From an uncultured bacterium (lineage in GTDB: Bacteria; Hydrothermota; UBA3072): DNA of 52,428 bases. Both the position numbers and the translations under genes were made by a program. The notes under the pieces were generated by a model. It did no database searches. It was not told the DNA's origin and was given only the letters and a program-made list of their open reading frames with translations. The stretch spans positions 1 through 52,428 of the forward strand of contig CAZALG010000001.1 of assembly GCA_964485935.1 (NCBI GenBank). Direction: 5' to 3'. Positions 138-43,861 of this stretch are shown here, in pieces; within the stretch, counting starts at the first letter, position 1; every line of letters begins with the position of its first letter.

Positions 138-932
138 ATGAAAATATTTAAAAATCTTTTTTTCGTTGCTTTATTTGTTTTTCTTGCGGGCTGCATCATT
201 AATATTCCAGAGACCAAAGAGAACAGTTTGCCACCCGCGCTTCCAGAAGACACTTCATATGGGGAAGATGTAGATAATACTTCAGAAATAGAAGATACTG
301 CAGAGATTGATGCAATTACGGGAGCGACAGGATTAAGTTTTGCGGTTCTAGGTGGTGCAACATACGGCGGGATTGTAGATAATCATGATGCTTCAGAGAT
401 AGAAGGCACTTCGGATGTTGATGCGATTACGGGAGCAACAAAAATAGCCTACAACGCAGGGGTTCATTCTATTTTTAAAGGTCATGGACGTACAATCGAA
501 ATAGGTCTCGATTATATAAGTTTTAATCAGTCTGTGAAATATAATTTGCCTTCGCTTTCTGTTAACGGCACAAGAAGTTTCGAATTTCAGCAGATCCGAC
601 TACCTTTAACATATAATTTTGAATTTTTTAAAAACGATTTAAATCAGCCCAAGCTTGCTCTAAAATTAGGTTTTTCTGCGGGTTATACTTTCAGTAAAAC
701 AATAGAAAATTCCGAAGATTCGGAGAATATGCCTGCTTACGAATTTACTGACTGGGAAATCGGACCGGCTTTTGGTCTTTGTTTTTATCCTTTTGACTTC
801 AGTCAAAGTTACAGGTTAGGTCTCTACATGGATGCGTATCGCGGAAGGAAAATATATGAAGATGTCTACCACGATGAAATATTCCTCGGCGATAATAGTT
901 TTTTGAAATTCGGTGTCATCTTCGAACCGTAA
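138..932 (+). CDS. Lipoprotein with two DAITGAT motifs and a beta-strand-rich C-terminal domain (hypothetical)
   Basis: This is the ORF listed as 57..932. The internal ATG at 138 yields MKIFKNLFFVALFVFLAGC (signal peptide plus lipobox Cys), and the promoter at 100..128 lies inside the longer ORF. An acidic linker carries EIDAITGAT and DVDAITGAT. The C-terminal half has an alternating hydrophobic pattern. Confidence 0.6.
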   Translation: MKIFKNLFFVALFVFLAGCIINIPETKENSLPPALPEDTSYGEDVDNTSEIEDTAEIDAITGATGLSFAVLGGATYGGIVDNHDASEIEGTSDVDAITGATKIAYNAGVHSIFKGHGRTIEIGLDYISFNQSVKYNLPSLSVNGTRSFEFQQIRLPLTYNFEFFKNDLNQPKLALKLGFSAGYTFSKTIENSEDSENMPAYEFTDWEIGPAFGLCFYPFDFSQSYRLGLYMDAYRGRKIYEDVYHDEIFLGDNSFLKFGVIFEP

Positions 933-937
933 AAAAA

Positions 938-974
938 GCAACAACGAATAGCACAAATTACACGAATATTTTTT
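938..974 (+). repeat. Intergenic repeat module M1 (gcAACAACgAATagCACAAATTACACGAATATTTTTT)
   Basis: Near-identical to 5636..5672. Related copies lie at 43672..43708 (+) and 37744..37770 (complement). Confidence 0.8.
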
Positions 975-1093
975 CTGCCGTCAGCTGTCGGCTTCTCAAT
1001 ACTAAATCCTATATCCTAAATATTGCCACTGATTAACACGGATTTTTTTGTCATTTTTAACTCGAAACTCTAAACTCGAAACTCTAAATCACA
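975..1093. repeat. Heptad-phased low-complexity tract, including (AACTCGA AACTCTA)x2 at 1059..1086
   Basis: Reads in a single 7-nt phase: ctgccgt cagctgt cggcttc tcaatac taaatcc tatatcc taaatat ... aactcga aactcta aactcga aactcta. It also contains GCCACTGATTAACACGGAT (1025..1043), which is shared with 5704..5722. Confidence 0.7.
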
Positions 1094-27972: not shown

Positions 27973-28605
27973 ATGAATTTTCTTAGCTTTGTGCCAATCG
28001 CAGGTGTAGTTTCGGGATTAATTGCTTTATTGCTCTTTTTCCTCTTGATAAAAAGACTAAGAAACAGGAGAAAGAAACTATTTGTATGCTTTATTCACTT
28101 TCTTATTGTGATTATTTTTGCCCTTATATCCACCATTTTTATGCTTTTGTACGCGGGTTTAAAAGGTTATGAACATTTTACCTATAACAAACCTATTCTT
28201 TCTGTCGAGTGTTCCCTTAAGCAAGATGATTCCTTTGTTCTTAAATTTATACCGTTAGACGGAAAAGAAAGTCAGGCAAGGTTCTATCGTGTTAAAGGAC
28301 AGCAATTTGTTATTGAGGGACATATAATTAAATGGGAAAATTTTTTCGTGACGGTTGGTATGAAGCCCTTATACCAGGTTACGAGGTTGACCGGACGTTA
28401 CGTTTCGATTAATGATGAGAAGGAAAAAGAACGCAGTGTTTATGAGATTGAGGAAGAAACCATGCTGTGGAGATGGTTGATGCAGTATGGAGAAAAAATA
28501 CCCGGTATCGATGCGGTTCAAGGTATTTCTTCGTTTAAAGACGCCGTAGAGAATAAAAAACTCACAGTTTATATTACTCATAACGCATTCGTTATTAAAG
28601 AATAG
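27973..28605 (+). CDS. Hypothetical membrane protein (two N-terminal TM helices)
   Basis: 210-aa ORF with hydrophobic segments VPIAGVVSGLIALLLFFLLI and CFIHFLIVIIFALISTIFMLLYAGL. No recognisable domain. Confidence 0.5.
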   Translation: MNFLSFVPIAGVVSGLIALLLFFLLIKRLRNRRKKLFVCFIHFLIVIIFALISTIFMLLYAGLKGYEHFTYNKPILSVECSLKQDDSFVLKFIPLDGKESQARFYRVKGQQFVIEGHIIKWENFFVTVGMKPLYQVTRLTGRYVSINDEKEKERSVYEIEEETMLWRWLMQYGEKIPGIDAVQGISSFKDAVENKKLTVYITHNAFVIKE

Positions 28606-28669
28606 TACAGTTGTTAGGGTGCAGTCATCATTTCTTAAAATAAAAGTAAAAGTTTAATCTGACTGTAAA

Positions 28670-28832
28670 TTAAATATCAAAAATTAAAAATCAAAATTAC
28701 ATATTAAAATGTAAATATATTTTTTGCCCAACAAAGGAAGTTAACTTTATATGCTTGGTTCGTTATTTTTTGTTTTTCTTATTTTTGAACTTTTATTTGT
28801 AATTTTCCATTTTGATATTTGATTTTTACATT
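28670..28832 (+). repeat. ~162-bp AT-rich intergenic repeat element, copy 1
   Basis: Left end TTAAATATCAAAAATTAAAAATCAAAATTACATATTAAAATGTAAA (28670..28715). Right end TTTTCCATTTTGATATTTGATTTTTACATT (28803..28832). Both ends are near-identical to copy 2 at 37670..37831 and the total length is the same. The ends contain mutually complementary words (AAATATCAAAA / TTTTGATATTT). Confidence 0.8.
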
Positions 28833-28910
28833 TTGCCATTTAACCACCCCGTGTGCTGTCGGGCAAAATTGGTTTTTAGGTTTATAGTTGTAGTATCGTT
28901 TTTTCAGCCC

Positions 28911-28938
28911 TTGACTTTGAAATAAACAAAGTTATTCT
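28911..28938 (+). promoter_or_regulatory. Sigma70-like promoter (CCC)TTGACT-16-TATTCT upstream of the transglutaminase-like gene
   Basis: TTGACT at 28911..28916 and TATTCT at 28933..28938, followed by SD AAGGAG (28946..28951). Confidence 0.4.
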
Positions 28939-28956
28939 TTTCGAAAAGGAGTGCAA

Positions 28957-30363
28957 TTGAAAAAAAATCGATTTTGGCTGCCAGTTTTATTCATATTAAT
29001 AGGAATTGCCATCATATTTTTTATCAAAGGAGGGCTTTCCAAACCGAAGGAAGTCTTCTCGGGGGATTTTTTTGAAGAAGGCGCCAATACCGAGTATTTA
29101 GGAATATATCTGAAAGGGCATAGAGTGGGTTATCTAGCGTCAAAAATTGACACTGTTGAAAATGGTTACAGAGTTTACTCTAACACGTACCTCAAGTTAT
29201 CTCCCGTACCGGGTATGGAAAAGGAAGTCACCTACAGGGTTACTGCCAATACCGATCTATCATATGATCTAAAAAGCTTTGAGTTTTCAATGTTTTCGGA
29301 CGATCATTTATTCGAGGCAGAAGGGGAAAGACATAACGGTAAACTTTTAATCAATATGAATGTAGCGGGTCAAAAAAGAAAGAAAGAATATGAGCTTAAA
29401 TCCTCTTACATGCCAGCAACCATAGAAGGTTTGGTCAAAACCGGGAAAACTGGTCGTTTTGAGTTCTTTGACCCCACTCTGCAGTCGTTGTTTGAAATAG
29501 AGGTCGAGAATTTAGGGAAAGATACATTAGAAGGAAAACCTGTTAAAAAGTATAGCGTTATGCAATCGGGTATGCAGATGGTCTTCTGGGTTTCAGAGAA
29601 AGGCGAATTATTACGTTCCGAATCACCAATAGGCTTGGTCATGAAAAAAGAAGAAAGAATCGCAAAGGAAGATATCGAAACGGTGGGCTTTAAGTTGTAT
29701 GATTCCTACGCAATCAGAGTAAAAAATGAGATAAAAAACCCCCGCGGTATATCTATTCTGAAAATACGCCTGGATTCTGTTGACCTTACCGGGCTCCGGA
29801 TAGAAGACGACAGGCAAAAACTTAATGGTAATGTTCTTACAATTAGCAGAATTGAACCCGGGCAGAAAGATAAGATTCCGAAAGATATAGAGGAATTTTT
29901 ACAAGCCACTGCTTTTATCCCCTCGGATGATGAGAGAATTAAAGAAATAGCGGAGGAGATTACAGAAGGAAAAGAAGGAATTGAAGCTGTCCGGAATATT
30001 ATCTCCTATGTTGACAAAAAATTGACGGATAAACCCACGTTTTCCATTCCGAACGCTCTCGATGCATTAGAGTCCGGAGAGGGAGATTGTAATGAACACT
30101 CGGCTCTTGCGGTCGCACTCCTACGGGCTGTTGGAATTCCCTCTAGGGTTGAAGTAGGACTTGTTTATGTGGGCGGGGCTTTCTATTATCATGCCTGGGT
30201 AGGAGTCTATCTGGGCGGAAAATGGATCTCTGCCGACCCTACTTTTGGCCAGGTAATAGCCGACCCCACTCATGTAAAATTAGAGTATGGAGGTTTTGAG
30301 AACCAGGCTAAACTCTATAGAGTCATAAACAAACTTCAGATTTCTGTTCTGGATTATGATTGA
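28957..30363 (+). CDS. Membrane-anchored transglutaminase-like (cysteine protease fold) domain protein
   Basis: GEGDCNEHSALAVALLRAVGIPSRV...YHAWVGVYLGGKWISADPT contains the Cys-His-Asp transglutaminase core, with an N-terminal TM helix. The ORF track starts at GTG 28951, but that codon overlaps the SD, so TTG 28957 (5 nt after AAGGAG) is preferred. Confidence 0.7.
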   Translation: MKKNRFWLPVLFILIGIAIIFFIKGGLSKPKEVFSGDFFEEGANTEYLGIYLKGHRVGYLASKIDTVENGYRVYSNTYLKLSPVPGMEKEVTYRVTANTDLSYDLKSFEFSMFSDDHLFEAEGERHNGKLLINMNVAGQKRKKEYELKSSYMPATIEGLVKTGKTGRFEFFDPTLQSLFEIEVENLGKDTLEGKPVKKYSVMQSGMQMVFWVSEKGELLRSESPIGLVMKKEERIAKEDIETVGFKLYDSYAIRVKNEIKNPRGISILKIRLDSVDLTGLRIEDDRQKLNGNVLTISRIEPGQKDKIPKDIEEFLQATAFIPSDDERIKEIAEEITEGKEGIEAVRNIISYVDKKLTDKPTFSIPNALDALESGEGDCNEHSALAVALLRAVGIPSRVEVGLVYVGGAFYYHAWVGVYLGGKWISADPTFGQVIADPTHVKLEYGGFENQAKLYRVINKLQISVLDYD

Positions 30364-37592: not shown

Positions 37593-37669
37593 TTTAAAAC
37601 CCTCGACCAAATTTTAGGTTATTTGCATAAAAACATCTCATTCAATTTTACCTATAGTTTTCAAGGAAT

Positions 37670-37831
37670 TTAAATATCAAAAATCAAAAAATAAAATGAC
37701 ATATTAAAATGCAAAATTATTCCGCCCCCTAGCCTCAAGAGCTAAAAACATATTCGTGCTATTTGTTGTTTTTTTTCCCATCTTTTAATTTTGCTTTGTA
37801 TTTTTCCATTTTGATATTTGATCTTTACATT
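37670..37831 (+). repeat. ~162-bp AT-rich intergenic repeat element, copy 2
   Basis: TTAAATATCAAAAATCAAAAAATAAAATGACATATTAAAATGCAAA (37670..37715) ... TTTTCCATTTTGATATTTGATCTTTACATT (37802..37831). The interior contains the complement of module M1 (37744..37770). The right end abuts the metG stop codon. Confidence 0.8.
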
Positions 37832-37832
37832 A

Positions 37833-42726: not shown

Positions 42727-43575
42727 CTATTCATAATAACCTAACCTTTTTACTTCTTGCTTTTCTTTTCTCCAATTCTTCTTGACTGCTACCCAGGTGT
42801 TCATGTACACCGGCCTTCCCAGAAATTCTTCGATGCTCTTACGTGCTTCGCTTACCACTTTTTTTAATTTTTTCCCACCTTTTCCTATTATAATACCTTT
42901 TTGAGATTCTTTTTCAACGAAAATTTTTATATCTATCTTGCTGTCTTCCATATTTTCTACTTTAACTGCTACACAATATGGTATTTCCTGCGAATACTCG
43001 GAAAGGACTCTTTCTCTTACGAATTCTTCGATGAAGAAACGCTCAGGTCGGTCAGATAAGTAATCTTCAGGATATAGCGGTTCCCCTTCGGGCAAATATT
43101 CAAGAAGTGAAGGTATTATTTTATCCACGTTGTCACCTCTTAAGGCGGATATAGTAAAAACCTGGGCAAAAGATTGTGAATCTATATTTTCCATTATTTT
43201 ATTTAGATCTTTTTCGGAAATTAAATCTATCTTATTTATAATCATAAAAGTCGGTTTATCCATTTTAGCAGGTAGATCCGTTATTATCGAGCTTTCTATA
43301 TGGTCAATCATCAACATTATGGCATCAGAATCATTTATGGCTGCTTTAATCTGCTGCTGCATCGCATTTTCCATTTCATTTCCCGGCTTAAATTGTCCAG
43401 GAGTATCCATAAAAATAATTTGATTGCCTCCTTCGGTCCATATCCCCAAGATTTTGTTTCTTGTCGTTTGAGGCTTTTCGTTGATGATAGAAATTTTGCT
43501 GCCTATAAGGCGGTTAAGTAAAGTAGATTTACCTACATTTGGTTTCCCAATTATTGAAACATATCCTGCTTTCAT
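42727..43575 (-). CDS. era: GTPase Era
   Basis: G1 GKPNVGKST, G3 DTPG, G4 NKID and a C-terminal KH domain (IIIGKGGKKLKKV). Confidence 0.9.
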   Translation of the reverse strand: MKAGYVSIIGKPNVGKSTLLNRLIGSKISIINEKPQTTRNKILGIWTEGGNQIIFMDTPGQFKPGNEMENAMQQQIKAAINDSDAIMLMIDHIESSIITDLPAKMDKPTFMIINKIDLISEKDLNKIMENIDSQSFAQVFTISALRGDNVDKIIPSLLEYLPEGEPLYPEDYLSDRPERFFIEEFVRERVLSEYSQEIPYCVAVKVENMEDSKIDIKIFVEKESQKGIIIGKGGKKLKKVVSEARKSIEEFLGRPVYMNTWVAVKKNWRKEKQEVKRLGYYE

Positions 43576-43610: not shown

Positions 43611-43671
43611 GGGAAAGCGAAAACTCGGTTTAATGAGGGTATGAGCCCCATCCCAACTCCAAAAAAAGATT

Positions 43672-43787
43672 AAACAACAAATCACACAAATAGCACAAAT
43701 ATGTTTTTAGTTTTTAAGGTGAGAGGTGGTATGATTTTACATTTTACTCTGTCATTTTGCTTTTTAAATTTTGATATTTAATTTAAA
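43672..43787 (-). repeat. Partial (~115 bp), inverted copy 3 of the ~162-bp element, including module M1
   Basis: 43672..43787 aligns along its length with the reverse complement of 37670..37770. The shared blocks are AACAACAAAT..AGCACaAATATGTTTTTAG, ATTTTaCATTTTA, TGTCATTTT and TTTTGATATTTAA. Confidence 0.7.
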
Positions 43788-43861
43788 TTCTGGCACTATT
43801 TTTAGGATTTTTTCTTTCACTAAACCCCAAATTTCAGATATCAGAATATAAGATATTTGTA

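Follow-up and report, generated by a model that had tools for sequence, protein, structure and literature searches.

An AT-rich intergenic repeat of a WOR-3 genus as a probable gene-less miniature of a hairpin-bounded four-helix-bundle cassette

An AT-rich element that recurs between the genes of an uncultured WOR-3 bacterium is probably the gene-less miniature of a selfish, hairpin-bounded cassette that encodes a four-helix-bundle protein. The element is found in a window of 52,428 nucleotides (the whole stretch of DNA that was analysed; contig CAZALG010000001.1), which is part of a 2.31-Mb MAG of 394 contigs with 37% GC and 86% completeness (G000). Genomes of this one WOR-3 genus hold more than 100 copies each, almost only intergenic and in either orientation, and at the same sites sister species differ in the presence or absence of a copy or in how far it has eroded.

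Copies in the window and in the genus

The preliminary description of this DNA had proposed a 162-bp element with copies of the same length at 28670-28832 (+) and 37670-37831 (+), both of which are borne out, and a third copy at 43672-43787. The third copy is inverted and partial as claimed, but its bounds are now 43659-43790. The figure of 162 bp does not describe the full unit, since many copies are longer, with a GC hairpin past the right end and a module of ~70 nt past the left end. In its natural orientation the element reads as the reverse complement of the sequence first described, and a vestigial gene has its start codon in what that description calls the right end. The three copies, in natural orientation, are:

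28665..28836, minus strand: copy 1, full-length and gene-less (profile model 1-172, E 9e-25); 3' arm ~28665-28718, 5' arm ~28781-28836
37593..37832, minus strand: copy 2 with its 3' extension (profile E 9e-31); 5' arm ~37779-37832, interior ~37719-37778, 3' arm ~37665-37718, extension ~37593-37664
43659..43790, plus strand: copy 3, truncated, with interior and 3' arm kept and the 5' arm lost (model 1-122, E 1e-19)

These E values, obtained with nhmmer against the family profile, are far beyond chance, and the alignment of all three window copies confirms the conserved ends and divergent interior that had been noticed. Copy 1 is flanked by two plus-strand genes (27973-28605 and 28951-30363), to which it is anti-parallel. 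It features a vestigial start codon (28810..28808) that reads M-E-N-Y-K-stop, and neither the GC hairpin nor the 3' extension is present. Copy 2 and its extension make up the entire 240-nt spacer between metG (stop codon 37833-37835) and a ubiA-family gene (start codon ATG, 37592-37590), are co-directional with both genes and include a 16-codon ORF remnant. Copy 3 is found on the upstream side of era (42727-43575, minus strand), to which it is anti-parallel. A weak match at window positions 931-983 (E 0.005) covers only the profile's interior 'class a' segment and corresponds to a stand-alone CAC-type word module without AT-rich arms.

The terminal inverted repeats of the element are imperfect arms of ~45-50 nt, built as imperfect inverted arrays of degenerate tandem heptamers, AAAATGN and NCATTTT. 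The left end as first described reads GTAAATTAAATATCAAAAATTAAAAAGCAAAATGACAAATTAAAATGCAAAATTAT and the right end reads ATTTTTGAACTTTGATTTGTAATTTTCCATTTTGATATTTGATTTTTACATTTT. The mutual complementarity claimed for the two ends is confirmed by the helices AAATATCAAAA/TTTTGATATTT and AAAATGACAAAT/ATTTGTmATTTT, with 83% of the arm cells paired across 73 copies. The interiors belong to at least three classes, each of which is a module also seen elsewhere between genes. A 13-nt GC hairpin, AGCGGCTTTGCCGC, often follows the right end; 18 of 94 copies have it in perfect form, and nearly all of its genomic occurrences adjoin a copy. The ~70-nt 3' extension follows the left end at no fewer than 16 loci, copy 2 among them, and its matches lie beside the element in 16 of 16 cases and nowhere else. 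At 11 of the 14 extension loci with an assignable neighbour the next gene is co-oriented, with a start 1-40 nt away in 9. Motif inspection of the extension found TGnTAATAC-like -10 motifs, and the module is a probable outward promoter; a generic promoter scan at copy 2 gave a chance-level score. At one gene-bearing copy, a consensus TTGACA-N17-TATAAT promoter was seen just upstream of the GCGGCAAAGCCGC hairpin (C165:1137-1230), so that the hairpin would be at the 5' end of the transcript. The right flanks of several gene-less copies contain a TATAAT-like box with the same spacing.

With a profile made from the initial matches, 124 distinct loci are detected in the MAG, of which 76 are full-length (36 on the plus and 40 on the minus strand). 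The gene-less copies measure ~130-200 bp and their vestigial ORFs stop after 5-16 codons. When placed on a crude ORF map in which 89% of the sequence is coding, nearly all copies fall between genes; together they account for 0.73% of the genome and 6.8% of its spacer DNA, and 114 of the 1111 spacers contain a copy. The gene context of 67 copies consists of tandem pairs (26 copies co-directional with the genes and 14 opposed to them), convergent pairs (16) and divergent pairs (11), and the orientation bias within tandem pairs, 26 versus 14, is weak. Genes that run into the 5' arm have their stop codon 0-50 nt away, and many copies begin 0-10 nt past the stop. The search for further copies and for variable orientation had been suggested as a check, and the 124 loci, which are on both strands and in tandem, convergent and divergent spacers, provide both. 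Together with the polymorphic sites described below and the lack of a predicted terminator, they support the earlier reading of a dispersed MITE/REP-like element over that of a strand-specific terminator or leader.

The family is present in all 14 genus-mates and in one other genus of the family, and the rest of the family, order and class is essentially without it. Several contigs terminate within a copy and the element accounts for ~7% of the spacer DNA of the genus, so it probably adds to the fragmentation of these MAG assemblies. The spacers themselves are repetitive, with ~22% of the intergenic bases of the window's genome having at least three similar copies elsewhere. They are mosaics of 7-10-nt tandem-word modules (CACAGAGAA, CACGGATnAA, GTTAGTGT, AATTGCAA and others), often in inverted pairs. 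In orthologous spacers of sister species, for example window 28606-28950, the core promoter is kept and the modules are entirely different.

The gene-bearing cassette and its distribution

Two loci of the MAG, C165:701-1136 and C152:2645-3081, feature the same arms ~436 nt apart around a 123-aa ORF, which runs on the strand opposite to the orientation first described. The ORF matches PF05635 (23S_rRNA_IVP) with E values of 4e-16 and 1e-20 and TIGR02436 (four helix bundle protein) with an E value of 1e-19. Its match to the DGR Avd family NF033474 is weak and sub-threshold (21 bits, cut-off 80). The nearest solved structure is 2RLD; searches with the protein gave no match in PHROG and nothing meaningful in PADLOC. 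The ATG and the first ~12-16 codons (M-E/K-N-D/Y-K-S-K-F-K-N) are inside the right arm of the first description, and the ORF ends, with TAA, directly beside the left arm. Of these parts the short copies retain the ATG in CCATTTTGATATTT and, by the left arm, TTATCyCTTsCCC, whose reverse complement gives the final codons and TAA. Since they keep these start and stop vestiges of the ORF, the short copies are internal-deletion derivatives of the cassette. Each genome of the genus has 1-2 gene-bearing copies of this protein subfamily versus ~100 gene-less ones. Each of the other five PF05635 genes in the window's genome has short-word arrays of its own kind on its flanks, which makes the AT-rich family one member of a wider class.

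On this evidence the full cassette consists of a 5' arm of AAAATGN heptamers that includes the start codon, a 123-aa gene for a protein of the '23S rRNA intervening-sequence protein' family, which is distantly related to DGR Avd, and an imperfectly inverse 3' arm. Loss of most of the gene gives the copies of ~130-200 bp, which contain both arms, some 12-16 codons from the start of the ORF and a few from its end, stop included.

The arms are not confined to WOR-3. Exact arm patterns that include the ATG were found at at least 97 genome loci for a 32-nt pattern and at least 80 for a 25-nt pattern, and the 25-mer loci span at least eight phylum-level groups, with most copies gene-less. Besides WOR-3/Stahlbacteria, the record labels include many Patescibacteria as well as Gammaproteobacteria, Pirellulales, Phycisphaerales, Omnitrophota, Actinomycetes, Bdellovibrionales and Edwardsbacteria. 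The distant loci are at 31-62% GC and on contigs of up to 1.2 Mb, so mis-binning cannot explain their presence. With up to 3 mismatches allowed, the arm matches numbered 110 for the genome of the window, 178 for a 1.2-Mb MAG and 2-24 elsewhere, versus 0-1 for a reversed-pattern control. The 1.2-Mb MAG (G048, locus L239, labelled uncultured Gammaproteobacteria) thus has a denser expansion than the WOR-3 genus. Viral contigs gave 0 matches for two arm patterns, and none of the open-access papers searched contains the arm sequences.

An intact ORF of 123-132 aa is present in 5 of the 51 non-WOR-3 copies; the remainder are minis, 100-200 nt long, in which a vestigial ORF start reads M[QKE]NDK. Gene-bearing cassettes with heptamers before the ATG were found in five other phyla, where the cassette sits snugly between co-directional genes, without hairpin or extension. 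The cassette proteins are 59-82% identical across phyla (the WOR-3 protein is 76% identical to that of Parcubacteria and 74% to that of Pirellulales), whereas a cassette protein and a same-genome paralogue with other arms are only 30-38% identical. This difference implies that protein and arms travel together and not with the host, and the sequence comparison indicates that the cassette has crossed phylum boundaries as a unit of the two. In other phyla, a GC-rich mini-palindrome, either GTCATTCCCGCGnAGGCGGGAATCC-like or GTCATCCTGAGCGnAGCGAAGGATCCC-like, is frequent in the loops of minis (L232, L248, L253, L243 and L236), which suggests nested insertion of a second small element in the hairpin tip.

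Insertion sites, transcripts and mobility

The closest relative in the comparison (G041), with 93% amino-acid identity in MetG and ~90% nucleotide identity over the syntenic 52 kb, is without all three window copies. At site 2 of this genome, the metG stop codon overlaps the ubiA start codon (TCATAG directly followed by TGAGGG, which gives TAG/GTG), as in a translationally coupled pair. The comparison of the filled site 2, with its 240-nt insert, to the empty site of the relative revealed no duplication. Among other species, a full copy is present at site 2 in two loci (L033 and L039) and a partial copy in two others (L032 and L035); otherwise the spacer holds unrelated word modules. At site 3, one species (G044) has the 5' arm and the same interior, the window has the interior and the 3' arm, another species (G042) has the 5' arm with another module, and the closest relative has none of these. 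Site 3 is thus best described, from the sequences compared, as an old insertion that has eroded differently in each lineage, and sites 2 and 3 both look like old insertions that were eroded or lost in some lineages.

Insertion polymorphism had been put forward as a check between strains, and it is found between species at all three window sites. At the strain level, three JGI metagenome contigs of the same population, with an identical Era protein, are identical at site 3, and no movement was seen among them. Within the genome, the paralogous copies are 85% identical in the arms (93% to the nearest neighbour) and 74.5% over the whole element. The whole-element identity to the nearest neighbour is only ~85%, which argues against a recent burst, and the family is, by its sequence divergence, apparently an old one with conserved arms.

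Conserved arms are also what would be expected if the element served its host. It could be an UP-like or curved-DNA module, a nucleoid-protein binding array or a portable promoter that is kept by selection and copied by recombination, and would then not be a selfish mobile element. The better conservation of the arms than of the interiors agrees with such a role, as do the frequent location of the right end of the first description 10-40 nt upstream of TTGACA -35 boxes, the extension 1-40 nt before a co-oriented gene start in 9 of the 14 assignable loci, and the minis of compact Patescibacteria genomes that fill a whole spacer from start or stop codon to the next start. However, copies are also found between convergent genes (16 of 67) and in both orientations, the closest relative has the same core promoters without any of the three window copies, and the promoter-like score at copy 2 is that of chance. 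The travel of the arms with a protein gene across phyla is a better fit to a cassette, and a host-serving role is considered unlikely.

The possibility that the element acts as RNA was considered from its fold. The preliminary description had stated that the ends can fold back and had suggested a test for compensatory changes; the test found none. Over the arms, 2185 paired cells were observed versus 2203 ± 5.5 in column shuffles, and G.A and A.C mismatches are conserved. The fold z-score is weak (-1.37 for both copy 1 and copy 2), no terminator-like site is predicted, and Rfam at gathering cut-offs gave 0 matches for the window, with tRNAs as the sole matches at 8 distant loci. A conserved structured RNA was therefore rejected on the lack of covariation, the conserved mismatches, the z-score and the lack of an Rfam match.

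The relation to rRNA was examined through the genomic sites. All copies lie between protein-coding or tRNA genes, and the MAG itself holds no rRNA genes. The family profile gave no match to the 23S genes of three genomes of the genus (G003, G007 and G013). The 23S gene of one of these, G003, contains a 285-nt, GC-rich, structured insert (L105 2490-2776) at the junction of GTAACTATAA and CGGTCC, a position typical of group I introns, and this insert was rejected as unrelated to the element. Another contig that bears a 23S gene (L106, G006:C27) is only 70-84% identical and has a ~940-nt insert further downstream.

RNase III was not detected in the window's genome (PF14622), in any of the 15 genomes of the genus (PF00636) or in any of the 26 genomes of the class (TIGR02191). 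TIGR02191 does detect the enzyme elsewhere in the phylum, in 8 of the 15 genomes that represent other classes. Excision of the intervening-sequence type by RNase III therefore cannot be assumed in this lineage. A class-wide loss of RNase III would be unusual and might relate to the tolerance of long hairpins in transcripts. These results also bear on a cis-acting structured RNA, either a bidirectional terminator or a processing hairpin that RNase III excises in the manner of an rRNA intervening sequence (IVS). The transcript of either strand would consist of an A-rich arm, a loop and a U-rich arm, many copies begin 0-10 nt after a stop codon, and the IVSs of Coxiella and Leptospira, which share this build, are substrates of RNase III (PMC4990558). 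Against these points stand the lack of covariation, of a strong fold, of a terminator-like site and of an Rfam match, along with the failure to detect RNase III at each of the three taxonomic levels, and a function of this kind is judged improbable.

The ends of the element are not sharp. A scan over all boundary offsets with k = 2-9 gave matches only inside the conserved ends, and no direct repeat of 3 bp or more was found at any fixed boundary offset in 69 copies. An all-against-all comparison of 2207 crude ORFs revealed no multi-copy IS-like family of transposases. The absence of a target-site duplication and of a transposase, noted for the window at the outset, thus holds in the offset scan and the ORF comparison. 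The sole Y1_Tnp gene of the window's genome (C291:216-1124; RAYT/IS200-like, ~300 aa) is bracketed, within the region C291:160-1210, by its own palindromes, AACTTCACATTTTTGTTnCGnACAnAAATGTGAAGTTTAG, which are unrelated to the AT-rich element. Y1_Tnp is missing in four carriers of the element (G001, G004, G005 and G014) and present in genera without it. A REP/RAYT partner was rejected, since Y1_Tnp has other palindromes and does not co-occur with the element. A reverse transcriptase partner was rejected as well, since RVT_1 is absent in 13 of the 15 genus genomes.

The last result bears directly on a retro-element satellite, in which a reverse transcriptase would turn hairpin transcripts into DNA, aided by the Avd-like protein as in a DGR. 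The relation of the ORF family to DGR Avd, seen as the weak NF033474 match of 21 bits, is consistent with this scheme; that score is, however, far below the cut-off of 80 bits. All of the 13 genomes without RVT_1 have many copies, with 110-124 loci in that of the window, and they include all seven that are at least 90% complete; no template/variable repeat pair, poly-A or other mark of retro-insertion was seen. Such a satellite is very improbable.

The spread of the AT-rich miniatures would instead occur at the DNA level, through a trans-acting factor that works on the conserved arms. The likeliest factor would be the pentamer-forming cassette protein, supplied by the 1-2 gene-bearing copies of each genome; it would parallel the transposase that serves MITEs, but without target-site duplication. 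To our knowledge, the four-helix-bundle family has no DNA-cleaving or strand-transfer activity. Most copies would be neutral spacer filler, and the accessory modules, the 5' GC hairpin and the 3' promoter-like module of ~70 nt that lies 1-40 nt before the next gene, may drive or shape the expression of a neighbour.

A broader and tentative proposal, possible but rather doubtful, is that the IVS protein is a new kind of mobility factor. A pentameric ring would read the heptamer arrays and move or copy both cassettes and minis, with no transposase, reverse transcriptase or target-site duplication, in hosts from Patescibacteria to Planctomycetota. The IVSs of rRNA would be one landing site among others, and the apparent loss of RNase III in the WOR-3 class may have let copies build up in transcription units.

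The family makes IVS mobility testable, because one protein subfamily is locked to one arm sequence in at least eight phylum-level groups. It offers a natural ratio of 1-2 gene-bearing to ~100 gene-less copies, like that between an autonomous element and its MITEs, and defined filled and empty sites. It also gives a rule for annotation, by which AT-rich heptamer foldbacks that start with AAATATCAAAATG are cassette remnants, neither genes nor regulators.

Comparison with known systems

Intervening sequences that carry an ORF have been described in the 23S rRNA genes of several bacteria (Ralph & McClelland 1993, as cited in PMC4990558). The IVS of Coxiella burnetii is 428 nt long, features an S23p ORF with GACAGAT heptamers up to the start codon and is cut by RNase III, and ORF-bearing 23S IVSs are also found in Leptospira, where they are cut by RNase III, and in Xanthomonas and Brucella (PMC4990558). 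The S23p-ORF IVSs have been called selfish for 30 years, with no known route of movement or role of the protein (PMC4990558). The cassette resembles them in its unit of ~430 nt, its inverted-repeat stem ends and its single PF05635 four-helix-bundle ORF, as well as in its tandem heptamers (here AAAATGN) that continue to the start codon without a Shine-Dalgarno sequence. Additionally, both have a sporadic distribution that suggests horizontal transfer, and both have short, gene-less versions. The element differs in that it lies between protein-coding genes and not in 23S helix 25/45, in its more than 100 mostly gene-less copies per genome, and in that the IVS-excising RNase III is undetected in its lineage.

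The degenerate tandem 7-nt words, their intergenic location near start codons and their occurrence in distant phyla are shared with the STRR of cyanobacteria and with the TAACTGA direct repeats of Beggiatoaceae, Cyanobacteria and Bacteroidetes (PMC4679880). Those repeats are, however, described as direct-repeat arrays without a gene, and PMC4679880 names neither S23p nor IVS, whereas the arrays of the element form inverted pairs and are linked to one particular protein subfamily.

MITEs and Correia-type elements (Neisseria CREE, RUP, Nezha and ERIC) are likewise short and non-coding with terminal inverted repeats, intergenic in high copy number and in both orientations, and derived by internal deletion of a longer coding element; some copies in each case seem to bring an outward promoter-like sequence. 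Unlike these, the element has no target-site duplication, its parent ORF belongs to PF05635 and is no recognisable transposase, and its arms are degenerate heptamer arrays with fuzzy ends rather than sharp transposase-binding termini. The Foldback (FB) transposons of eukaryotes have long terminal inverted repeats of short tandem repeats, are mostly non-coding and make target-site duplications; the likeness is an analogy only, with no sequence or host relationship to the element.

REP, BIME and REPIN sequences with RAYT (Y1) are also abundant intergenic palindromic repeats that form mosaics with other modules, but the element is much longer than a REP, has no GTAG-type head and is unlinked to Y1_Tnp. 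DGRs, in which Avd is paired with a reverse transcriptase, differ from it on each of the points given above, namely the Avd score of 21 bits versus a cut-off of 80, the absence of RVT_1 in 13 of 15 genomes and the lack of a template/variable repeat pair. The existence of a gene-bearing PF05635 parent with the same arms places the family with the IVS-like cassettes and not with REP/RAYT or the classical transposase-derived MITEs, and the AT-rich repeat is classed here as MITE-like and selfish, with an IVS-like cassette as its source.
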